Positions 31,798 to 62,657 of a stretch of DNA of 64,000 nucleotides are shown here, piece by piece (within the stretch, counting starts at the first letter, position 1; each line of letters starts with the position of its first letter). The stretch spans positions 124,001 through 188,000 of the forward strand of contig CP060762.1 in NCBI GenBank assembly GCA_023205875.1, read 5' to 3'. Origin of the DNA: Chloropicon primus. Its lineage: Eukaryota. The notes beneath the pieces were generated by a model that was not told the origin of the DNA, did no database searches, and saw nothing but the letters and a program-made list of their open reading frames with translations. The translations under genes and the position numbers were made by a program.

Positions 31798-32319
31798 CCA
31801 CTCCACCTCCCTCTACCCCTTTGCCTTTGTGTCCTGTTGATGTTGTTGCTGCTGCTGCTGCTGCTGCAGATGTTTGCAGAAGATGATGTCTCCCAACGAG
31901 GCTTCCCCCTTCGAGACACCAAAGCTCCGATACAGATGCGATGCAGTGACGAGGCCAACGGATGAATGGATGAACTCCTTGGTCTCTACCCCTCTTCCCC
32001 TCTCTACCCTCTGTCCTTGTTGTTGTTGAAGCTGATGCAGATGCTGGCTGTTAGAGGAAAGAAGAAGAAGATGATGATGTTGAAGAAGACTCAAGTAAGG
32101 AGAGCAGCGAACGCAAGGCTTCCTCCTCCGAGCTCCGATACAGATTGCGATGGATGGACTCGTCCTTGGCCCCAATGGATGAATGCGATGGATGGACTCG
32201 TCCTTGTCGTCGTCCAAGCCAATCGCTCCTCCTCTTCTCTCTCTCTCTCTGACTCGACGGGTTCAAAAACTTTTTGGACGAGGGCGTACGGCTTTGGCTT
32301 TGGGTTGGAGGGGAGGACG

Positions 32320-33787
32320 ATGGCAAGGTTCGTCCGAGGAGGGGGAGAGCTGGTGCGGCAGCTGAGGGCTTCGGTTGGTCCGCTCCCTTGCTCTCTGTCG
32401 CGACGAAGGCAGCCTTTGGTAACCGTAGTAGCGAAGAGAACAAAGTTTGAGACGAGCCATTGGACAAAACCTTTTTCTCCATTCAAAGGTAAGTCCAGTC
32501 GTTGCCTTTTGGCGGATGACAGGAGGGGTTGTGGCGCGTGTCCAGTGGCGGTCACTTGGAGTGGATCCTCTTCTTCTCTTGTGGCTTGGCTTGGCGTGAC
32601 GCAATCAAGGAATCAAGGAATCAAAGGAACCAGCAAGTGATTCACTGACAAGTTGAACTCCTTTTTGTGTGGTTTGGTTCCATTCCCAAGGACAAGCAGG
32701 TGAGAGCGGTCCTGTGATGTGGAGGACAGTGGAGGGGTCTCCGCTGCAGAGCGCAATGCAGGGACGTCACCTGATACGGCAGTGGACGCGGCAGTACTCT
32801 GACTCGAGCAAGGGCTGGGGGTATGGCGCGATACTCGAGCGTGGAAGGAACCTGCTGAGCAAGGGTGAGGGTGGTGGCACAGGCTTGGGCGCGAAGCTGC
32901 CGAGGCCCAGGTTGATCCCCCTGTCGGAGCTGAGGGGGAACGTGAAAGAGAATTTTGCCAGGGTAGTGACCGAGAGGATGCGTGGGTTTTGGCAGCGCAA
33001 CAAGCACATTGTTTTGGGCGTGTCCGCTTCTTTTGCTGTCTACTACATATGGCGCACGACGTACGGGGTAGCGAGCATGTTCATCGACTTGACAGAAACC
33101 TTTGCGGAGATGGGTTTCCTGGCTCTCTCCGTCGCTATGACGGGCGCTTTCTATTTGTATATAAGGGAAAGGTCGAGGATCAACCCCAACAAACTGTTTC
33201 GGATGGCGATGACGAGGCTCAACACCTCTCCCGCCGTTCTGGAGGTGATGGGGGCGCCCCTGACAGGCTCGCACCTGCAGGCCTCAGTCTTGTCGGGGGG
33301 CGGACTGCGGGTGAAGGGGTACCTCGGCTCCGAGGGCGTCAAAATTCGATCCACGAGGCTTCACATGATCTTCCCAGTTGCAGGTCCGGAGGCCCGAGGG
33401 GTGGTGAGCATCGAAGCGAAGAAGAAGAGGGGGAAGCACCAGTTCAAGCTCTTGGCGGTGGACGTGGTGACGAAGAGTGGGCTGGAAGAAAGGATATTTT
33501 TGGACGGGGACGAGAGCTACTACAGGCGCGGCGGTATCCTGAGCGAGCTCAGAGACCCGTTCTTGAAAGTCGCCGCGGCGCAGACGATGTACGAGATAGA
33601 AGACGACGAGGAGGAGCGTGCCGCCATTGCCGCCAACGTGGCGGCGAAGAGTGAGCGGGCGAGTTCAGCCGGTGAGACCGGCCAGGAGAAGAAACAAATT
33701 TACTTTTACGAGTGGGGTTGGGAGTACTTGAAGGCGCAGCTGTCGAGCGTGCCACAGAAACTGGCTCAGAAACCAGTCCAGAGTTAG
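32320..33787 (+). CDS. Mitochondrial TIM21-like inner-membrane protein of the green lineage (exon 32320-32488, intron, exon from about 32691)
   Basis: Arg-rich presequence exon, GTAAGT donor, CTGAC branch point; INP..FR.AM..LN....LEVMGAPL.G, IFPV.G....G.VS.E.KK..G....KLLAVD. Confidence 0.7.
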
Positions 33788-44905: not shown

Positions 44906-45347
44906 CAACAACACCAAAACCAAAACCAAAACCACCAGTTTGCAATGACAATGCAAACTCCAGGACCAAAAAAACGAATCCCTTCCACTCGGAACCGTTT
45001 CCTCTTCTCGCTGCGTTCGAATGAGCCAAGTCCCTGGACACGAAGGTCACTCCCTTACTAAGGTCGCGCTCCTCGGTACTCGGTCTCTCTCTCTCTCTCT
45101 CTTCTGATCGCCTTCGTCTGCAAAGCGCCGAGCGATCGATCTTCTGATCACCTGAGGGCATTGATCGCCGATCGATCGGCACACGAGGAGAGGAGAGGAA
45201 GGGGAGGAGAGGGGCGGAATAGGAGGCGATCGAGGAGGCTGGGCCGCGTGGGAAGGCGACAGATCGATAGAGTGTCTGTTTTTCTTTCGTTCGAGTGTTC
45301 TCTGGAAGGAAACGACGATCTGGTGAGGAAGTTGGGCATCGGCAAGG

Positions 45348-46812: not shown

Positions 46813-48685
46813 TCACACCCTGGCGTTGGTGAACTTCTTCCAACAGGCCTGGTCGATTCTCTTGACCATGGCCTTGATCTGCTGCCCCGGTCCCAGCTCG
46901 TGCAGACTTGTCTTTCCGTTGGAGATGAGGGCCTTGACCAAGGACTCCCACTGAACGGGCTCGACGAGCTGCCTCATGAGGAGCTTCTTGATCTCTTGTT
47001 CCTCCTCGGGGAAGGGAGCGGCGGTCACGTTGGAGTAAACAGGGATCCTTGGCTTGCTCAGGGAGATCGTGGAGAGGACCTTCTCCAGGTTGTCGGAAGC
47101 AGACTGCATGAGGGGCGTGTGGAATGCTCCAGAGACGGCAACCTTCTGCGCTTTCAAGGCGCCCTTCGAGGTGGCGAGCTTGGCAAGGTGGTCGAGAGCC
47201 TTGTTGTGGCCACTCACCACACGGCCCTGAGGGAAGAGGTAATTTGCCATCTGGCAAACCACTTTGTCGTCCCCGGCCTTTTTGAAGTGGTCGACCGTCT
47301 GCTTGCAAATGTCGGAGACGTCCTTGTCGCTCAATCCGACGATGGAGAGCATTCCGTGCGGGTCTCCCATCGCCGCGGCCTCTGCCATGCTCTCGCCTCT
47401 CACCTTTACGACCTTGAGCGCATCCTTGAAGCTCATCACGCCCGCGAAGACGAGCGCGGTGTACTCCCCGAGGGAGAGCCCAGCCGTGCAGCTGCACTGC
47501 TTCACCGTCTTGTCGTTGTCTTGCTTGAACATCTCGACCGCGGCCATGGAGCAAACGAAGAGAGCGGGCTGGGCGTAGACCGTGTTGTCGAGCTTGCTCT
47601 TGGGGCCGTTCAGGCAGACGTCGAGGAGATCGTACCCCAGGACTTCCTTGGCCTCGTCGAACATCTCCTTCACGCGAGGGATGCCAAGCGTGTCCTTGAC
47701 CATCCCGACGGCCTGAGACCCCTGGCCAGGGAAAAGGAAGGCGATTGGCGTGTTCAGGCTAGCGGATGGCTGCATGGAGGCCGCTAAGGCAGGGTTCGCG
47801 GCGATCTGAGCCTGCTTCTCCTTTCTCAGCTTCTTCTCCTTCTTCCTGTCCTCCTCGTCCTTCTGCCTCTTCACCTCCTCGGGGTACTCTGGCTTGTAGC
47901 TCTTCTTCCACTGCTTGACGGTGTCCAAGCCGTAGTCGTACAGGGCCCACCAGTCGCCGATGTCCGGGTGGGGCTCAGGGCTCTTATCGGTGCCCTTGTA
48001 CTTCTTCTCCAAGGCCTTGATCTTGCCTCGGATGACCTCGTCGTCCACGGCGACCTCGATGGGGAGCTTCTTGCCTTTTTTTGTTGTTGGTCGGTTTGGC
48101 GGTGGGGGTGAAGATGAAGCAAAGAAAGAAGGGAAAAGGGGCGTCAGCGCCATGCTTTCTCTCAACGTCACGCCACGAACAAGCCGCGGGGGACGGGAAG
48201 GTTGGAACAAAACGCTCGAAAGAAAGAAAAACCACTCGGGTTGGCTGGCAAAGGAAACGCATAATGTCCCCCGCCGCGTCCCGGCTTGTCGTCGGAGGCT
48301 TACCTGGGTTGAGGTAGGGGTCGTAGTCCTCGCTCCTGATGCTGGGGTCCGCCCCGCGGCTCAGGAGGTACTCGTAGATCTCCAAGTAGCCCTCGAAGTG
48401 GGCGAGGTACGCCGCGCGATGAAGAGCCGTGAAACCCTTCGCGTCACGCTGGTTCACCACCCCACCGTTGTTTAGAATATGGTGAAGCATGTCGAGCTGC
48501 TTGTACGTCGTCGCGAAGTGGATCGGCGCACCCGCACCATTGTCCTGCGTCCAAAAGTAAGGGTCCTTCTCCATAATCTTCGCCAGCTGCTCAGGGTCCC
48601 CCAGCCTTATCGTGCTGTAGAACGCGAATGGAGGGTACTTGGGTGAAGGGGGGTACCTCCCCGTTCCTGTCATGTCTCTCGGCAT
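46813..48685 (-). CDS. Ankyrin-repeat + malonyl-CoA:ACP transacylase fusion (exons 48685-48304, 48074-46813)
   Basis: Exon 1 ankyrin motifs (APIHFA, GFTALHRAA..LLSRGADP) join NPG|KKLP through a phase-1 intron to FPGQGSQ, AQPALF, GLSLGE, SGAFHT, PVQW, ELGPG. Confidence 0.85.
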
Positions 48686-50691: not shown

Positions 50692-50793
50692 CCTCAGCAG
50701 CAGCTGGACGGGGGGGAATGGAATTCAATCAATTCGTTTCCTTGAGGATGCAGGGGCAAGAGAGACGCGTTCAAGGATGATGGCTGGACAAGC

Positions 50794-50849
50794 CTCACCA
50801 GGACAGGAGAAAACCTCTCCTGTTGAGAATCTTCTCCTGTCCTGGTGGG
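50794..50849. repeat. Inverted repeat / hairpin with a 16-bp perfect stem
   Basis: CACCAGGACAGGAGAA (50796-50811) is the exact reverse complement of TTCTCCTGTCCTGGTG (50832-50847). Confidence 0.9.
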
Positions 50850-50920
50850 ACTAAAACCTAAAGGAACATCGGGGAGGGCAATCCTAATATCATATCATAT
50901 CATTATCATATCATACAAGA

Positions 50921-52387
50921 TCATCCTTGTTGTTGTTTGTTTGATGACTTCGTTGAAAGGGAGAACACAGACCTGTTGATGTCCGGCAGGAAGGCTTCGA
51001 CCAGGGTACAGGCCGCTGGCTTGTTCTGCTTCCTGAGCTTGCTCATCCTCTTGCGGTGAGCTCTGCTGTTGCGGTGGCTCTCCCACTCCAAAGGTCCTCG
51101 GAAGACTCTGCCGTTACAGACGCTGCACTGGTACGTCCGCCAATTGGTCTCCTCCCCGGCCTCCGCTGGTGCAGTCTCGCCCTCTGTCGCCGCTGAGCGC
51201 TTGGTGAGGAACGACTCGACTCTAGGGAGGACCCTGTCCATGACCTCCTCCTTCCATATCGCTTGTCTTGACCTCCCGGCGTCCTCGTTCCCGCTGCTGG
51301 CTTCCAGCTTGCTTCGGATGACCCCTGTCATGTCAACCGTGGAGCAACCAATGGCCTGATCGGAGACCCAGCGCTGGACCCTTCTCCTCTGCCTCTTGGC
51401 GAGCCTGATGGTGTTCTTCTTCATCTCCTCGACCCCCTCCTCGATCATTTCCCCGGAACCACGATCTTCGCGCCCCGCCTCCTCGGCCTGGCCAGGGCTG
51501 AAAACGTGCCTGAACTCCTTCACACCGATGGCTTGGAAGATTCCTCGCTCGGTATCCGGGTGGCACCTCGCGTACAAGTCCGTGAGCTCTTCCTCCATCC
51601 CCCTCTCGATCATCGCGCCCACCCTGGCACGCAGGTGGGGAGCGAGAACAGAGTCATCGGCATCCAAGAAGAAGACGCAACAATGGTACAGCAGGGTGCT
51701 CCCCTTGGTCTTCGACGCCACCCTCTGCCTCTTGAACAGCTCGCTCGCGGGCACCCCAGTAGTCTCGTAAATGTCCAAGTACCTTCGTATCCTCCTCGTG
51801 TTGTTCGGATGCAGCCACGCCGCGCTGATCGGGTCCACCTCCTGAAGCTGCTTGTACTTGTCCTCCAAGTCCGCGCCGTCCGCATCAGGCCTTGAGGGCG
51901 GCGCTTCGTTCGATTCGAGGGCATCGTCGTCCTCGTCTTCGCCACCACCGCCACCATCTCCTGGTGCTGTTCCTGGTGCCGTCGTCACTTGAGAGAGGTC
52001 GAAGTGTCTGCTCAGGAGGGCCTTGGCGTAGTAGTCGGACCCACCACAAAGGATGGGCAACACGTTTCGTTTACGCAAGTCTTCCAGGACCCCCTGGGCC
52101 TCAATTCTGTACTCCTGGGTCGTGAAGTCCTTGCGAGGATCAGCGAACCCGATGAGATGGTGCCTCACCCCCCTCTGCTCCTCTGGGGTTGCCTTGTTGG
52201 TCACGATGGGAGATCCAGAGTAACACTGGAGAACGTCGCAGTTGATCACTTCGCAGGAGATTCCGTGCCTGTCACGCAGAGCCTGCGCGACCTCAATGGC
52301 AACCTTCGTCTTCCCCGTACCAGTTGCCCCCAGGATCACGAGCACCTTGCCCCCCGCTTCCCACTTCTTCGATGTCTCCATCATCAT
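50921..52387 (-). CDS. tRNA isopentenyltransferase (TRIT1/Mod5/IPT2-type) with C-terminal zinc finger
   Basis: GATGTGKT, INCD..QCY, TNK, HHL, GGSDYY, HPNNTRRIRR.L, FQAIGVKEF, C..C..WE.H..S..H. Confidence 0.93.
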   Translation of the reverse strand: MMMETSKKWEAGGKVLVILGATGTGKTKVAIEVAQALRDRHGISCEVINCDVLQCYSGSPIVTNKATPEEQRGVRHHLIGFADPRKDFTTQEYRIEAQGVLEDLRKRNVLPILCGGSDYYAKALLSRHFDLSQVTTAPGTAPGDGGGGGEDEDDDALESNEAPPSRPDADGADLEDKYKQLQEVDPISAAWLHPNNTRRIRRYLDIYETTGVPASELFKRQRVASKTKGSTLLYHCCVFFLDADDSVLAPHLRARVGAMIERGMEEELTDLYARCHPDTERGIFQAIGVKEFRHVFSPGQAEEAGREDRGSGEMIEEGVEEMKKNTIRLAKRQRRRVQRWVSDQAIGCSTVDMTGVIRSKLEASSGNEDAGRSRQAIWKEEVMDRVLPRVESFLTKRSAATEGETAPAEAGEETNWRTYQCSVCNGRVFRGPLEWESHRNSRAHRKRMSKLRKQNKPAACTLVEAFLPDINRSVFSLSTKSSNKQQQG

Positions 52388-52392
52388 CCTCT

Positions 52393-52863
52393 TCACGTCT
52401 CGCGAAGGTGATGCCTCACGAGTTTGTGCGTGTTCTCAAAGTAAAAGTCGCCCTCGAACTCCTTGCCCGCCAACAGCAGCGGGTACCAGTACTCATCGTC
52501 CGCCCACATCTTCTGGTACGGGATATCCTCCACAGCAAACCACTGTGGCTTCATCTCTTCCGTCTCCTTGGGCTCCTTGGGCTCCAAGTTCAGGCCAGTC
52601 GTGAACACGTGGACTTCCCAAGGCACAGGCTTGTCGTCAAAGTGAAACCGAAGCAGCCCCTTCCTCACACACTCCTTGGCAGTCACACCGGCCTCCTCCT
52701 CCAGCTCCCTCCTCGCGGCTGCCTCCACTGATTCGTCGCTTGGCTCCACCTTTCCACCGAAGCCGTTGTAGTACCCTTCCCCGAAGCCTCGCTTCTTCAA
52801 CCCGAGCAGCACTCGCTTCCCATCCGTGGGGATCAAGAGCGTCAGCACCTTGGCCTTGGCCAT
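52393..52863 (-). CDS. NUDT1: Nudix hydrolase MTH1/NUDT1 (oxidised purine nucleotide triphosphatase)
   Basis: LLGLKKRGFG.G..NGFGGKVE..A.REL.EE.G, ETEEM.P.WF..IPY..MW.DD.YW.P. Confidence 0.92.
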   Translation of the reverse strand: MAKAKVLTLLIPTDGKRVLLGLKKRGFGEGYYNGFGGKVEPSDESVEAAARRELEEEAGVTAKECVRKGLLRFHFDDKPVPWEVHVFTTGLNLEPKEPKETEEMKPQWFAVEDIPYQKMWADDEYWYPLLLAGKEFEGDFYFENTHKLVRHHLRET

Positions 52864-53265
52864 CAACTCACCACTGACGTCTCAATCGCGTTCCCGTGCG
52901 ATGTTCCTAGGTCAAGTGAGGTATCAATCGAAAGCCCGCGAGACGTACTTTCGTTTGATCGACTCGTCCTTCCCTCTCTCGCCTCGACCTGTTCGTCAGA
53001 AAGGTAAAGCGACCTCCCCCTCGATCGGTCCCACAGCGCGCCCGAGACGAAGAGAAGACATCCCCGTGATCGCTGCCGCTGCGGAGAAGTCGAGGGGAGG
53101 GGACGGAAAACCGCAAGGAGAGGGCGAGAAGGGAGGAGAGGGCGAGGATAGGGTCGACCATCAGAAGCGTCTTGTCGCCAGCTTTCGAAAGAGCCCTCGC
53201 TCGAAAGGAGTAACGCTCTGGCGAGGATTTCAGACAGTGAGAGAGAGAGAGAGAGAGAGAGGAGC

Positions 53266-54930
53266 ATGAGCATGAGCGTGGAGGAGGGAGAGGGGAGGGA
53301 AGCTTCTTCTTCTTCTTCTTCTTTGGTGTCGGAGGAAGGGAGGGAGGGCGCGAGCGGAGTTAGGCTGGTGATAAAGAACCCTGCGAACGCGACGGACTTC
53401 GAGGTGTTCTGTCCGTGGAACTGCACGGTGGGAGGCCTGAAGGACAAGTTGAGCGAGGAGTACGAAGGGCGTCCACCGTCCAGCAAGCAGACGCTGATAT
53501 TCGCTGGCAAGGTGCTGAGGAACGACCAGGTGTTGGGTGATACGATAAAGACGCCGAAGAAGCAAGCGCAGTGTTGCGGGGAGGTCAGCTGTGGTAGCGA
53601 GAGCGACGGGGAGGAGGAGAACTTTTTGGCAAAGCTCCACCTCGTTGTTCAGTCTGCGCCCAGTCCAGCGGTCAGGTCTCGCAGCGGGAGCGGAGCGAAA
53701 GCTCCGGAAGCGAGGAGGCCGGAGGCCGGCGAGGGAACGCTCCCCGCGGCGGCAGAGGCGAGCACGAGCGGAACAAACGAAGAGGTTTCTTTGTCAGAAC
53801 AGAGTGATGCCACGACTGGCGGTCTGGCAGGGCTGGGAGGGGTGGATGATGGTCAGGTGACCCTCCCTACACCCAGTTTTACGACGCCAAGCCCTTCGGA
53901 GCCCCTTGGATCGCCCCAAGGGGAGAGGCAGGATCTTCCTCCCAGCAGCGCGGGAGCAGAAAGCTCCGGCGCGCAGCCGCCCCCTCAAACTCCAAGTCAA
54001 TGTGCCCAGCCCAGCACCCCGCAGACTGCGACGCCACCTATGAGCCCAGCAATGTCGGCTGCGTATGACGCTGCGCTGAGGGCCGTGATGAGCTCGCCCG
54101 CGGTGACTCCGGGGCAGCAGCACCACCCGCAAGGTTTTCACTACGACCCGAGGACTCCCGTGATGGCGCCTTATCCCGGGTATATGTACGCCCCTAGCCC
54201 TTACAGCCCCTATCCCATGGCCATGAGTCCGTGGGGGCCGTTCTTTCCACCCCCTCCGCCCACGGCAGCGGGGTTCCCTGGATACGACCCGGCTCTGCTC
54301 TTTGCCAATCAGGCAAACTTGATGCGAGCTCACCAGGCTCAGTTTGCGCCGATGGGTCAAAACAGGCTGGCGGACAGGATGGCGCACATGCAGCAAGGAC
54401 CTGCTCGGACAGCAGAGGAGGCCAGAGGGCCAGGGCAGCCGGGAAGGCAGGGGAACGCTCCCAGGGTCGATGCCGCGGCTGGCAACCGGAACAACAACAA
54501 CGCGAATGCGAACGGAAACCGAAACGGGAACAACCGGAACAACGGGTTCTGGGATTATCTGAACTTGCAGCTCACTCTGAAGCTCTTTGTTCTCGGGATC
54601 ATCATAAATCACGACGGGTCCGTGGGTCGGTTGCTGCTCACTGCGTTCATCTTCATGTTTGTTTACATGCAGCAGATGGGCATTTTCTCGTCCAACGGGA
54701 CCCTGATTCAGAAGTTCAGCGCCTGGTACTCCTCAACCTTTCGAAGGCTGGACGGCGCGAACGCCAACTCACCTGATGCGCCACCGGCGCCCCCCGTGAA
54801 CCCTCTGGTCAGGCTCTTCATTGAGGTGCAGTGGTTCTTCATGGCGTTGCTGGCGTCTCTTCTCCCCTCCTTCTCTGCGGAATCCTTTATGGAGCAGGCC
54901 GCAGCCCAAGTGAGGCCGCACCAAGACTGA
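53266..54930 (+). CDS. HERP-like ER membrane protein with N-terminal ubiquitin-like domain
   Basis: TVG.LK..L...Y...P....Q.LIFAGKVL; Pro-rich linker; C-terminal TM segments ending FF.ALL.SLLP. Confidence 0.78.
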   Translation: MSMSVEEGEGREASSSSSSLVSEEGREGASGVRLVIKNPANATDFEVFCPWNCTVGGLKDKLSEEYEGRPPSSKQTLIFAGKVLRNDQVLGDTIKTPKKQAQCCGEVSCGSESDGEEENFLAKLHLVVQSAPSPAVRSRSGSGAKAPEARRPEAGEGTLPAAAEASTSGTNEEVSLSEQSDATTGGLAGLGGVDDGQVTLPTPSFTTPSPSEPLGSPQGERQDLPPSSAGAESSGAQPPPQTPSQCAQPSTPQTATPPMSPAMSAAYDAALRAVMSSPAVTPGQQHHPQGFHYDPRTPVMAPYPGYMYAPSPYSPYPMAMSPWGPFFPPPPPTAAGFPGYDPALLFANQANLMRAHQAQFAPMGQNRLADRMAHMQQGPARTAEEARGPGQPGRQGNAPRVDAAAGNRNNNNANANGNRNGNNRNNGFWDYLNLQLTLKLFVLGIIINHDGSVGRLLLTAFIFMFVYMQQMGIFSSNGTLIQKFSAWYSSTFRRLDGANANSPDAPPAPPVNPLVRLFIEVQWFFMALLASLLPSFSAESFMEQAAAQVRPHQD

Positions 54931-55023
54931 TCGCGATTAGATGGGCTATTTTGTGTTTGCTTCATAAAATGCTTTCGTTTTTAGAAAAATTCTTATATTA
55001 TTTTGGCTTTGCATTTACCTTCC

Positions 55024-56979
55024 TCACTTCCCCTTGTTCCCCAGCTCCGTGAGTTGCTGCAAGAACTCGCAAGGTGCTAGCATCTCCGTCGCACCATACA
55101 CTACATTACACTTTGGCTGGACCCTTTGCGACATCTCTTGCAGGGAGTGGTACTCCAGGTAGTTCCCCCCACCGATGATGCACACCATGACGTCTCTGTA
55201 GGCGGCAGACTTGGAGCTTGCTGGACTCGTGCCCCTGGGCAACTTTGGATCAAAGTAGAGATATTTCTCCTGCTCTTCGCCACTTCCCTTGGACTCGACA
55301 AGAGCTTGGACAGCCCTCGTGACGGCAAAGGTCTGGCCCTGGCTCATCAAGTTCTTCATGCCTTTGGCCATGACGTCCAGGCCCTTGGACACGAATTTGT
55401 CCGCGAAATCCAGAATGTTTCCCTGCGCCCCAGAAGAACCCGCGCTGCCCGGCATGGCAAAGCTCCTCTGAGCTCCCGTCAGGCTCAAGTTTCTGAGCCT
55501 CTTCAGGTAATTCAGGGCCTCGAGATCCGCTCCAGCTCCCTTGAGGCACTGGTCGATTTCCTCAAAGTCTGCCGCAGAGGGCAAGGTCTCGCACGTAAGC
55601 AGCCAGGTGGCCACCAACCTGAGCTTGTCGGAAAGAAGTCCTTTTGGAGTTGTGATGACCTTGAGGACCGCGCTCTTGTCCGCTTTCCCAGCGAAGAGCT
55701 CCTCTTCCACAGCAACGAAGTTGTCGATTTGCCTGTCTTTGATCTCCTTCAGAAGAGCAGTGGCAATGTTCGTGTGCTTGTCTATCACCCTCTTCCTCTC
55801 GGTGAGCTCCGGCAGTGAGCTCACGGCATTCATCAAGTTCTTCGTGTTTGCTTGGAGGTTGTCGTCCTCGTCCTCTCCCGCCCCAGAGGTGTGCGTATTA
55901 ATGGCAGCCATGTCCTTCTTGTATTTATTGAGTTGCTCTTCCACCTCCTCTGCAACTTTGGGGAACGGCCTGCCTCCATTCTCCTCCCAGAAAAAGTCTC
56001 CCGGGCCGACATCATAACTCTTCTTGGATCCAGTCGACCCACCGCTCGCAGGGTTCTCGCTCGCCACGGCGGTCCGGCCAAGCTTGAGGCCCAGGACGTC
56101 GTGAACCATCGCGTGATACGTCCAGCAGTGTTGGATCTGAGGCGTCAGATCAAAATTTCTGTCGAACAGGACCAAGAGCGGTCTCTGGAAGCTGCCGCCC
56201 TTCATGGTCGACGAGCTAAATGCGTTGCTCCTCTGCTCAAGGTGCTTTCGGATGTACCCGTCCAGAGCCCGAGCCACGTGCTCTGCCGCCCCACCCCGTT
56301 GGCACCTGATAATAGGAACTGAGCCCCAGGTCGCTATCGCACAAAAGAGGCCGTCTATGATGTCCCCTATCGCTTTCTCGATCTCCACGTCCTTGGCCGA
56401 GGGGTCATTCAGGGCAACATAGGCTTTCGGGATCATCAGGGAGAACAGGTCCTTCTCGAGAGCAACGAACGCCAAGTTCTGGTCAAACAGCTTGGCAACC
56501 CTTCCCAAACAGCGTTGCTTCGTCAGTCCTGACGCCAAGTCTTGCAGCGACTTGTCCGAAAGCGGGGCGCAGAAATTGAGGTGGGCCACATCGTACGTCC
56601 CAACGGCGAGGTCTTGCGTCACCCTGCTCACGTTGACGTCCGTAGCCCTCACAAAGTAAACGGCCGGCACGTCAGGCACGTTTTGCCTCTCGCTGTCGAT
56701 CAAAAGGTACAGCGTCACGCCGCACTTTCTTAGGTCGTTCAACCTCAGCAGGGGCGTGATCACGTCCCTCGTGAAGCTGTCCAGGACCAGCACCTTGTAC
56801 GACGAACCGCTCTGCCCGCCTCCCTGCCCCCCGGAGCTCGCCCCTCCTCTCCCCTTCCCCTTCCCAGGTGATGCCAAACCCAATGGAGTCGACGAAGGTC
56901 CGCCGCTTTCGTTGAACGACAAAAGGCGGACAAGGGCGTCGATCTGCCGCTTCCGGAGCGACGTCCCTGACGACGCCAT
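55024..56979 (-). CDS. SLY1: Sec1/Munc18-family protein SLY1
   Basis: YKVLVLD..LR..GVTL..I..RQ..PDVPAVYF, RPLLVLFDRNFD, LPEL.ERKR.ID.HTNIA, IGGGNY.EY. Confidence 0.93.
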   Translation of the reverse strand: MASSGTSLRKRQIDALVRLLSFNESGGPSSTPLGLASPGKGKGRGGASSGGQGGGQSGSSYKVLVLDSFTRDVITPLLRLNDLRKCGVTLYLLIDSERQNVPDVPAVYFVRATDVNVSRVTQDLAVGTYDVAHLNFCAPLSDKSLQDLASGLTKQRCLGRVAKLFDQNLAFVALEKDLFSLMIPKAYVALNDPSAKDVEIEKAIGDIIDGLFCAIATWGSVPIIRCQRGGAAEHVARALDGYIRKHLEQRSNAFSSSTMKGGSFQRPLLVLFDRNFDLTPQIQHCWTYHAMVHDVLGLKLGRTAVASENPASGGSTGSKKSYDVGPGDFFWEENGGRPFPKVAEEVEEQLNKYKKDMAAINTHTSGAGEDEDDNLQANTKNLMNAVSSLPELTERKRVIDKHTNIATALLKEIKDRQIDNFVAVEEELFAGKADKSAVLKVITTPKGLLSDKLRLVATWLLTCETLPSAADFEEIDQCLKGAGADLEALNYLKRLRNLSLTGAQRSFAMPGSAGSSGAQGNILDFADKFVSKGLDVMAKGMKNLMSQGQTFAVTRAVQALVESKGSGEEQEKYLYFDPKLPRGTSPASSKSAAYRDVMVCIIGGGNYLEYHSLQEMSQRVQPKCNVVYGATEMLAPCEFLQQLTELGNKGK

Positions 56980-57072
56980 GGCCTCCCTCACCGCCTCACT
57001 CTCCCTCTCCCTTCGCGCCGCTAAAACCCTTTCCTTTCCAGAGCCCTCGCTCCCCCGCCACGCGCTCCTGTC

Positions 57073-57415
57073 ATGGACTGGCTCAGGAGAGGAGGAGGAG
57101 GAGGCGCAAAGGATGATGGACATCGATGGCGATTGAGGACGGATGGCAAGCTTGCCAGGAGAAAGGATGTTGCTGGTGCAAAGATCGTCTCTTCACCTTT
57201 CGAAAGAGGTCCCGCATTGGAGACTGGGACTCACTCTGTCAATGGACTGGCTCTGCAGGAGGAGAGAAGGAGGAGAGGAGGAGGAGGCGCAAAGGATGGT
57301 GGACATCGATGGCGATTGAGGACGGATGGCAAGCTTGCCAGGAGAAAGGATGTTGCTGGTGCAAAGATCGTCTCTTCACCTTTCGAAAGAGGTCCCGCAT
57401 TGGAGACTGGGACTC
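57073..57415. repeat. Direct tandem duplication (core about 140 bp, offset 183, one visible mismatch)
   Basis: GGAGGCGCAAAGGATG(A/G)TGGACATCG...GAGACTGGGACTC ends at 57232 and again at 57415. Confidence 0.95.
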
Positions 57416-58941: not shown

Positions 58942-60620
58942 CCAAGAACAATGTCTCACGACGAACCTGTCATCGACCTTCGCTTTCCTTCCTGGTTCCT
59001 CCTCCTTCCTCTTTCTCCTCTCCTCCTCTCTTTGTTTCTTTCTCTCGGTGGATTTTCTCCCTTCCGCTGAACCATCATAACGGCCCGAGGCCACGAGGGG
59101 CCGAACGAGGAGCACGAGAGAGAAACGGAGAGGACGGGAGAGCGCGGAGGAGGAAGAGAGAGAAGAGGCGGACAGGAAAGAAGGAAGCGTCGTCTCGTGC
59201 TCTTTCGAACGAGCTCTCGCGCGAAAGAAACGACCCAGTGGTGAGGATCTGGCGACGACACGAAACGAGAGAGAGAGGAAACGAAAGGACGATCAAGGCG
59301 TAGATCACCGAGGAGGGGAGGCGACGACGAGGGCGGGAGTTTGTGCCGGAGGGTTTTCGAGTGATAGACGAGCGGAAGGAGTGTCTTTTCCTCATTCGAA
59401 CGAGCCCTCGCGCGCCACAAGAAGGACCCGGTGGTGGGGATCATCTGAGGAGCACGGGCACACGGACGGACGTGATCATGATGGAGGAGACGAGGGAGAG
59501 CAGAAGGCAGAGGAGGAAGGGCAGGGACGCGTTGGATGTGCTGCCGGAGTGGGCGTGGCTCCTGGTCTTGAAGCAGCTGGATGAGTACGACCACCTCGCT
59601 TTTGGTTTGACCTGCAGGGCGTTCCTCGTCGTGGGGAGGATTACGGCGAGGGCGATGGCGAACCCTTCTGACCACCCTCAGAAGGAAACGCAGAAGGGTC
59701 TTCCTCTGAGGACGAACTTGGCACACGAAACGTTGTTCAAGCAGATGCCTCGCTTCAGTTTGAGTTGGTTCCAGTGGGTGTCTCGGTCGTTCAAAAGGAG
59801 GAAGGGAGCACCGAAAGAGTTGAGATATGGCGAGTACTACGACCACTTGTACGACTGTGACCTGATGTACCTCGCCGCTTTCCAGGGCAGCAAGAAGGTG
59901 ATGGAGTGGTTGGCGAGCCAAGGGATCTCTTTTGGTATCGAGCGCTATTATCATGGAGTGGTAGCAGTAGCAACTGGAGGAGCCGCTGCAGGAGGTCATA
60001 TTGAGATATTGGAATGGCTGGGGAGCGAGGGGTGCGAGTTTGATAACTTGACTTGTTCTTCTGCAGCTCTTGGAGGTCACCTTGACGTTCTGAAGTGGCT
60101 CCGAAGCCAGGATCCGCCTTGCCCTTGGGACTGGAGGACTTGTGAATATGCAGCTGAAGGAGGTCACCTTGAGGTTCTGCAGTGGGCTCGAAGCCAGGAC
60201 CCGCCTTGCCGTTGGGACCCAATTGAATGCATGGTGTGGGCGGAGAGCAGGAAAGACCAGCACGCCATCGAATGGATCAATGCCAATATTTAACCAAGAA
60301 CAATGTCTCACGACGAACCTGTCATCGACCTTCGCTTTCCTTCCTGGTTCCTCCTCCTTCCTCTTTCTCCTCTCCTCCTCTCTTTGTTTCTTTCTCTCGG
60401 TGGATTTTCTCCCTTCCGCTGAACCATCATAACGGCCCGAGGCCACGAGGGGCCGAACGAGGAGCACGAGAGAGAAACGGAGAGGACGGGAGAGCGCGGA
60501 GGAGGAAGAGAGAGAAGAGGCGGACAGGAAAGAAGGAAGCGTCGTCTCGTGCTCTTTCGAACGAGCTCTCGCGCGAAAGAAACGACCCAGTGGTGAGGAT
60601 CTGGCGACACGAAACACGAA
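58904..60620 (+). repeat. Recent tandem segmental duplication (about 58904-59270 vs 60256-60620, offset 1352)
   Basis: Near-identical gene end plus intergenic sequence; similarity continues into the paralogous coding regions. Confidence 0.95.
59478..60293 (+). CDS. F-box-like + ankyrin-like repeat protein (short, 2 RSQDPP repeats)
   Basis: LDVLPEWAW..VL..L..YD..AFGLTCR.F; AA.GGHL.VL.W.RSQDPPC.W. Confidence 0.88.
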   Translation: MMEETRESRRQRRKGRDALDVLPEWAWLLVLKQLDEYDHLAFGLTCRAFLVVGRITARAMANPSDHPQKETQKGLPLRTNLAHETLFKQMPRFSLSWFQWVSRSFKRRKGAPKELRYGEYYDHLYDCDLMYLAAFQGSKKVMEWLASQGISFGIERYYHGVVAVATGGAAAGGHIEILEWLGSEGCEFDNLTCSSAALGGHLDVLKWLRSQDPPCPWDWRTCEYAAEGGHLEVLQWARSQDPPCRWDPIECMVWAESRKDQHAIEWINANI

Positions 60621-60812
60621 AAAGAAAGGCAGAAAGAAATCGAGGAGTAGATCACCGAGGAAGGGAGGCGACGACGAGGGCGGGATTTTGTGCCGGAGGT
60701 TTCTCTCGAGTGATAGACGAGCGGAAGGAGTGTCTCTTGCTCTTTCGAGCGAGCCCTCGCGCGACAAGAACGACCCATTGGTGAGGATCATCTGAGGTGC
60801 ACGGACGTGAAG

Positions 60813-62533: not shown

Positions 62534-62538
62534 GAAGA

Positions 62539-62657
62539 ACATACGCCACGAGAGATTCCCGTGTTGTCACCAACCACAGTACTGATCTCGCCCACACGCG
62601 CTTGACTTCCGAGTTCTGATGGGATCGGGTATTTTCACGTAGGTATGAACGTATGAT
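62539..62657 (-). rRNA. 5S rRNA (solitary copy)
   Basis: 119 nt: AUCAUACGUUCAUACC..CCCGAUCCCAUCAGAACUCGGAAGUCAAGC..UGGGC..AGUACU..GGGAA..CGUAUGU, with complementary ends. Confidence 0.95.

Follow-up and report, generated by a model that had tools for sequence, protein, structure and literature searches.

A closely spaced NUDT1 and tRNA isopentenyltransferase gene pair as a candidate bicistronic nuclear locus of Chloropicon primus

Introduction

How is a nuclear gene expressed when its start codon lies only 5 nt behind the stop codon of another gene? This question is raised by a locus of the green alga Chloropicon primus, on the minus strand of a 64-kb stretch of contig CP060762.1 (positions 124,001 to 188,000; this whole stretch, which is what we analyzed, is called the window, and coordinates refer to it). 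There, an intronless ORF of 156 aa encoding an MTH1-type enzyme, NUDT1 (52393-52863), is immediately followed by an ORF of 488 aa encoding a tRNA isopentenyltransferase, IPT (50921-52387). A sequence-only reading of the locus had proposed a bicistronic gene, recalling that polycistronic nuclear transcripts occur in green algae and typically carry a short upstream ORF, a background that published work bears out (PMC7896298, PMC11291117).

Results

Profile searches matched NUDT1 to PF00293 (E 6.5e-17) and IPT to PF01715 (E 8.7e-54). NUDT1 aligned over its full length with solved MTH1 chains (PDB 5otn/1iry, E ~1e-39) and was 64% identical to C. roscoffensis WZN66384.1, the nearest named relative among the top matches. 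With this full-length homology, a Nudix box and an MWADD segment, the predicted protein is an oxidised-purine nucleoside triphosphatase of the MTH1/NUDT1 type, although, unlike the solved MTH1, it carries a one-residue insertion in the Nudix box. The insertion (52735-52757, minus strand) gives EPSDES where 15 of 15 aligned homologues, C. roscoffensis included, have EPG-ES. IPT is likewise predicted to be a eukaryote-type tRNA isopentenyltransferase, of the class that we take to be Mod5/TRIT1-like: it combines a P-loop IPPT domain with a C-terminal Cys/His zinc-finger-like segment, and the full-length alignment with its best solved match (3eph, "tRNA isopentenyltransferase") runs through the C-terminal C..C..H..H segment. 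Each protein is whole, as it aligns end to end with stand-alone homologues.

The coordinates and letters of both ORFs and of their junction are as the sequence-only reading described them. On the minus strand the junction reads TGA-AGAGG-ATGATGATG, where the NUDT1 stop is followed by the 5-nt spacer AGAGG (52388-52392) and then by three tandem ATGs (52379-52387), each with an A at -3, which open IPT in the -1 frame with respect to that of NUDT1. This stop-to-ATG gap of 5 nt compares with 229-827 nt at the seven other same-strand gaps measured, a control that is small because it was drawn from the 64-kb window alone; gaps of 578 and 76 nt were left out because the 224-aa ORF that they flank (31966-32640) looks like a putative exon. 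The minus strand carries here two complete, separate ORFs whose spacing is far tighter than that of ordinary collinear genes. The further remark that no room is left for a promoter or a poly(A) signal between the ORFs is true of the 5-nt spacer, but either may lie within coding sequence. The GC content of the window is ~53-62% per 2-kb bin, and reported genome values are 57.5% (C. primus) and 60.4% (C. roscoffensis; PMC12301720). A scan of the window against Rfam returned a sole match, a full-length 5S rRNA gene located amid protein genes (62538-62656, minus strand).

We also looked for the pair in relatives. NUDT1 was located just 5' of IPT in two of 80 metagenome loci, L001 and L002, which come from the same species. 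The NUDT1 of these loci shares ~97% identity with the C. roscoffensis protein; identity with the window is 66% for NUDT1 and 48% for IPT. In L001, NUDT1 occupies 377-982 and IPT 1031-2434, and a single intron of 131-132 nt, without counterpart in the window gene, is predicted for NUDT1 of both loci. In this C. roscoffensis-like relative the spacer is 48 nt long, in frame and stop-free, and it leads to a single IPT ATG. The window and the relative share the 7-nt sequence GAAGAGG directly 5' of the IPT ATG, a sequence that precedes just 2 of 1,380 ATGs of the window. Both ends of the junction, ACG-TGA and AGAGG-ATG, are common to the two, as if 43 nt had been gained or lost in the middle of the spacer.

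In a third lineage the two genes probably lie together on the same contigs, considering that five of the six members of a NUDT1 cluster equal IPT members of another cluster in longest-contig size, a comparison in which the spacer is not visible. When the longest contigs of the remaining IPT and NUDT1 clusters were matched by size, no additional pair emerged. Among the other 78 metagenome loci, 27 were classified, with best matches to fungal- or animal-like proteins, and viral contigs and prokaryote genomes, which were also scanned, contained nothing relevant. The genes flanking the pair in the window (UBL, FMO, acyltransferase and Sec1) had no match in the 3.3-kb contigs of L001 and L002. The pairing in related algae, proposed as a check by the sequence-only reading, is kept, directly in L001/L002 and indirectly in the third lineage, and the alignments point to a conserved collinear pair within Chloropicon-like sequences. 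Since genes of C. primus and C. roscoffensis are mostly collinear (PMC12301720), adjacency alone is weak evidence, and the tightness of the pair weighs more. As for annotation, none of the 40 members examined (of 76) of the L001-type IPT cluster is named, though its NUDT1 is annotated in NCBI.

RNA-like sequences of six runs (X1, X2, X3, X4, X5 and X8) were aligned to the window; X5-X7 carry just 5-8% of the words. Introns near the pair are spliced out, a 229-nt intron at 48073/48303 in 4 of 4 runs and a 121-nt FMO intron in 3 of 4, and therefore the runs contain mRNA-derived sequence. The 229-nt intron joins an ankyrin-repeat exon to an acyltransferase-domain exon, and 46813-48685 (minus strand) is apparently one ankyrin-acyltransferase gene.

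Results showed that the NUDT1-IPT junction is bridged in two of the six runs, which come from two studies, by one contig each, an X1 contig (50283-52990) with one substitution and an X2 contig (51164-53042) with zero differences, both gapless and free of any joint; these are assembled contigs, which cannot tell one molecule. In the pieces listed for X3, X4, X5 and X8 the junction was not crossed. Overlapping X2 contigs jointly cover 50871-53042. The X1 contig also continues unbroken from IPT across the 229-nt gap 50692-50920 (minus strand) into FMO exon 1, which may represent read-through or overlapping UTRs, and a contig over two genes therefore does not show a single transcript. A bicistronic NUDT1-IPT mRNA is likely, given the tight spacing, the kept pair and the contigs across the junction, but it is not proven by these contigs. 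Elsewhere in the window, the UBL (plus strand) and Sec1-family (minus strand) genes at 53266-57123 are convergent; their ends are separated by 93 nt and a single X2 contig joins the two genes, which suggests that their 3' UTRs overlap.

The contigs also delimit the putative unit. They reach 52990 in X1 and 53042 in X2, and the leader suggested by these ends (52864-53042) contains no ATG and has an apparent length of 127-179 nt, with the limit that contigs cannot mark the true start. At the other side, two X2 contigs extend down to 50871-50872, pointing to an IPT 3' UTR at 50871-50920. X2 is uncovered at 50758-50870, in the IPT-FMO interval, and at 53043-53062, and such gaps in cover were not counted as evidence. 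In X3, cover thins going from the IPT 3' end toward NUDT1.

The contigs speak directly to the concern, raised by the sequence-only reading, that one fused ORF is masked by a sequencing indel. Because the X1 and X2 contigs are gapless over the junction, the latter is not a sequencing or assembly error, and in the relative, too, a stop separates the ORFs; we give a sequencing or assembly indel practically no chance.

A programmed NUDT1-IPT fusion, made by a -1 frameshift in the window or by stop read-through in the relative, is compatible with the open frames on both sides, as no stop interrupts the window IPT frame over the 16 codons 5' of its first ATG and the 48-nt spacer of the relative has neither stop nor frame change. 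However, each species would require a recoding event of a different kind, and both proteins are complete. Frameshift signals follow a slippery-heptamer pattern, and no such heptamer was found in the last 73 nt before the window IPT ATG. Moreover, the IPPT domain was present in 0 of 35 longer NUDT1 homologues and NUDIX in 0 of 40 IPT homologues (268-854 aa), meaning that neither protein search returned a NUDIX-IPPT fusion. The frameshift fusion that the sequence-only reading had considered is argued against by all this, and we regard a programmed fusion as very improbable; the comparison with the relative favors two separate proteins, with no conserved frame or read-through. The same reading had pointed to a GTG in the IPT frame overlapping the NUDT1 TGA. 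This GTG is present in the window, but the 48-nt in-frame spacer of the relative, whose GTG is out of frame with IPT, argues against a functional start. A 491-aa database entry starting at the overlapping GTG was rejected as evidence, being a gene-caller's choice.

Another way to obtain a one-ORF IPT mRNA would be alternative splicing from the splice-donor-like hexamer GTGAGT located 2 nt 5' of the NUDT1 ATG (52866-52871, minus strand), removing the whole NUDT1 ORF. The hexamer at 52871 is a perfect donor, and the real intron of the relative's NUDT1 opens with the same letters. On the contrary, such a joint was not seen in the contigs of the six runs, which drop rare forms, and CTRAY, the branch consensus, was not found near the NUDT1 3' end. 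In addition, L001 has no GTRAG donor 5' of its NUDT1 ATG, and TGGTGAG, which is part of a recurrent 5' element, occurs 25 times in the window. We consider the splicing-out of NUDT1 highly unlikely.

The two genes could also be expressed by overlapping ordinary mRNAs, with IPT transcribed from a start of its own within the final ~100 nt of NUDT1, past the last internal ATG, and the NUDT1 mRNA running through IPT as a long 3' region. This would explain at no cost that NUDT1 is not depleted in ATGs, as detailed below, and the stretch from the last NUDT1 internal ATG to the IPT ATG, 109 nt in the window and 161 nt in L001, is ATG-free and offers room for a normal leader. The genome is, moreover, very compact, and contigs look alike for one mRNA or two.

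We looked for transcription signals that such mRNAs might use. No canonical poly(A) signal was found after NUDT1 in the window or the relative: TGTAA is absent for 1,275 nt 3' of the NUDT1 stop in the window, and L001, counted from the NUDT1 start, has a single TGTAA, 33 nt past the IPT stop. As TGTAA occurs within 200 nt in just 7 of 25 window genes, the window IPT not among these, it is a weak marker here. Concerning promoters, the last third of NUDT1 has 18 of 33 codons synonymously conserved vs 18 of 39 and 12 of 24 in the other thirds, and neither extra synonymous conservation nor a GC3 shift hints at a promoter buried in this 3' third, which argues against overlapping mRNAs. A GA-repeat, a motif chosen post hoc, is absent from the 250 nt 5' of the window IPT ATG vs present in 19 of 27 other upstream regions, while L001 has one 65 nt 5' of its IPT ATG.

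The recurrent 5' element is ~60 nt long; its core is the palindromic CTTTCGAAAG, and one end reads TGGTGAGG. Copies are at 14600-14542 and 25099-25042 on the minus strand and at 53172-53229, 60731-60789, 59192-59249, 60544-60601 and 59382-59442 on the plus strand; diverged copies are at 45279-45329 (plus strand) and, before NUDT1, at 52944-52896 (minus strand; nhmmer E 2.2e-4). Six copies, those for which the downstream gene was examined, lie in sense orientation ~20-140 nt 5' of unrelated genes, and similar stretches occur in other RNA contigs. The element has no Rfam match and is absent from L001 and L002; it could be a core-promoter/leader module or a small mobile element. Near the Sec1 gene, the sequence 5' of its ATG (57117-57400) contains a direct duplication within 230 nt, with element matches at 57187 and 57370. 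No copy of the element was found inside NUDT1 or before IPT, which counts against a separate IPT mRNA, but since most window genes are without the element, its absence before IPT tells little. In other green algae, tight same-strand pairs are polycistronic by long reads in the loci that have been reported (PMC7896298), which also weighs against overlapping mRNAs, and we hold these to be rather unlikely, albeit a serious possibility. Combining the weak hints from the poly(A) signal, the 5' element and the synonymous sites and GC3 with this precedent, we find it reasonably probable that NUDT1 and IPT share one mRNA as the source of IPT.

On a shared mRNA, IPT could be reached by leaky scanning, by which some ribosomes skip the NUDT1 start. 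A purine at -3 is a general principle of start context. NUDT1 has T at this position in the window and C in L001, while IPT has A in both; a purine is found in 16 of 23 other window starts, which were taken as first ATGs and are possibly wrong in some cases. This pattern at -3 agrees with leaky scanning. On a 23-start window matrix, a small training set, NUDT1 scored 2.3 vs 3.7 for IPT in the window, and -1.7 vs 3.0 in L001. The window NUDT1 start is mid-range on this matrix, and it is the internal ATG at 52554 that tops the unit (4.5).

NUDT1 contains four internal ATGs (52494-52823, minus strand), of which 52554 and 52509 are in frame, whereas 52823 and 52496 are out of frame and open ORFs of 8 aa and 26 aa; along the gene, the ORFs opened by the four are 8, 53, 38 and 26 codons long. 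The last three ATGs coincide with conserved codons and are also present in the relative. The sequence-only reading had cautioned that internal ATGs make leaky scanning less obvious, rightly so: they are real, and with 4 observed vs 5.4 expected (P=0.37) they are not depleted. Control tiles had ≤4 ATGs in 27 of 66 cases, and synonymous-codon nulls gave P=0.54 for the window and 0.40 for L001. The ATG depletion 5' of ORF2 that marks leaky-scanning bicistrons is not observed here. Two internal Met are the minimum among 104 NUDT1 homologues of ≤190 aa (18 have two, none fewer), so that constraint on the protein limits ATG loss. Furthermore, as ATG depletion is a set-level trend in the published bicistrons (PMC11291117) and one locus has low power, we treat leaky scanning as an inferred mechanism and not as a ground for membership among them.

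We put close to even, and slightly below, the chance that NUDT1 and IPT sit on a shared mRNA from which IPT is made by leaky scanning. According to this model, one promoter 5' of NUDT1 would drive an mRNA with a single 3' end ~50 nt past the IPT stop. Most ribosomes would translate NUDT1, and a minority would skip its start, which has a pyrimidine at -3, and then either bypass the internal ATGs of NUDT1 or translate the short ORFs opened there and scan on. These scanning ribosomes would start IPT at an ATG with A at -3, as a separate protein, and low IPT output could suffice for a tRNA-modifying enzyme. A 10-nt inverted repeat connecting the NUDT1 leader to the stop region was considered as a shunt helix and rejected as a chance match found post hoc: 2 of 300 shuffles reached such a match, its pairing probability in the folded RNA is 0.0, and it has no L001 counterpart.

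Alternatively, ribosomes that have translated the full-length NUDT1 might terminate and reinitiate on the same mRNA at the ATG cluster 5 nt further on, as the sequence-only reading had suggested. Reinitiation would be indifferent to the internal ATGs, which are undepleted, and the very short gap and three tandem ATGs of the window would suit it. However, neither the 5-nt spacing nor the ATG triplet is conserved, since the relative has a gap of 48 nt with one ATG. In caliciviruses, the TURBS motif is UGGGA, placed before an overlapping or abutting stop-start. The window has TGGGA at just 225 and 427 nt 5' of the NUDT1 stop and L001 has none, and the motif is absent from the 200 nt next to the stop in both species; no UGGGA is located shortly 5' of this stop-start. 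In the literature, yeast is reported to show 80S reinitiation on bicistrons (PMC11952965), but mutational tests in Auxenochlorella favored leaky scanning over reinitiation (PMC11291117). Termination-reinitiation for IPT is left without positive support by the missing TGGGA and the unconserved spacing, and we judge it improbable.

Discussion

The NUDT1-IPT pair resembles in several respects the polycistronic loci that Gallaher et al. reported in 2021 (PMC7896298). In both cases two same-strand ORFs are unusually close and collinear in a relative, the short ORF comes first (471 nt for NUDT1, against reported medians of 444-600 nt), and the products are functionally unrelated, with an unconstrained frame. 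Those loci rest on long-read, H3K4me3, poly(A) and peptide data, whereas NUDT1-IPT is known from sequence and contigs. The Chloropicophyceae do not figure among the species surveyed in the consulted parts of that article.

The leaky-scanning bicistrons described by Duenas et al. in Chlamydomonas and Auxenochlorella (PMC11291117 / PMC11892635) share with our pair a short inter-ORF gap, from a few nt up to tens of nt (median 40 in Auxenochlorella), a pyrimidine at -3 of ORF1 and an A at -3 of ORF2. Their ORF1 medians are 291-357 nt, and NUDT1 is longer. Two further differences concern the ATG depletion that is their hallmark, with median observed/expected of 0.43-0.49 (PMC11291117), while NUDT1 is undepleted, and the leader, with medians of 54-83 nt in the same study, while that of the NUDT1-IPT unit looks longer in our contigs.

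We also asked whether the pair had already been described. It was not found by name in seven supplementary files of PMC7896298, nor in seven of PMC11892635 (the PNAS version), and rows without gene descriptions could hide it in either set; the one Nudix row in the PMC7896298 supplements is a NUDT5-type gene of C. zofingiensis. A full-text search of literature outside subscription papers gave no report of a bicistronic isopentenyltransferase-Nudix pair, and the word "cistronic" is absent from the main text of both Chloropicon genome papers (PMC6731263, PMC12301720). By analogy with the published loci, NUDT1-IPT is a new candidate for the already known green-algal bicistronic nuclear loci.

As ORF1 keeps a normal ATG load, the leaky-scanning model can be usefully stress-tested on this locus. 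A reading at odds with a leaky-scanning-only model is that of a native green-algal nuclear mRNA on which ribosomes translate a full-length first ORF, ATGs included, and then reinitiate to make the second enzyme. It seems doubtful to us; for this possibility, the 5-nt and 48-nt natural alleles, with their shared GAAGAGG-ATG end, constitute a ready-made test of reinitiation. Two recognisable enzymes as products are uncommon for bicistronic loci, as far as the reported set describes them (PMC7896298). The phenomenon of bicistronic nuclear mRNAs is itself already established in other green algae and, if the NUDT1-IPT pair is confirmed, it would extend to the Chloropicophyceae.
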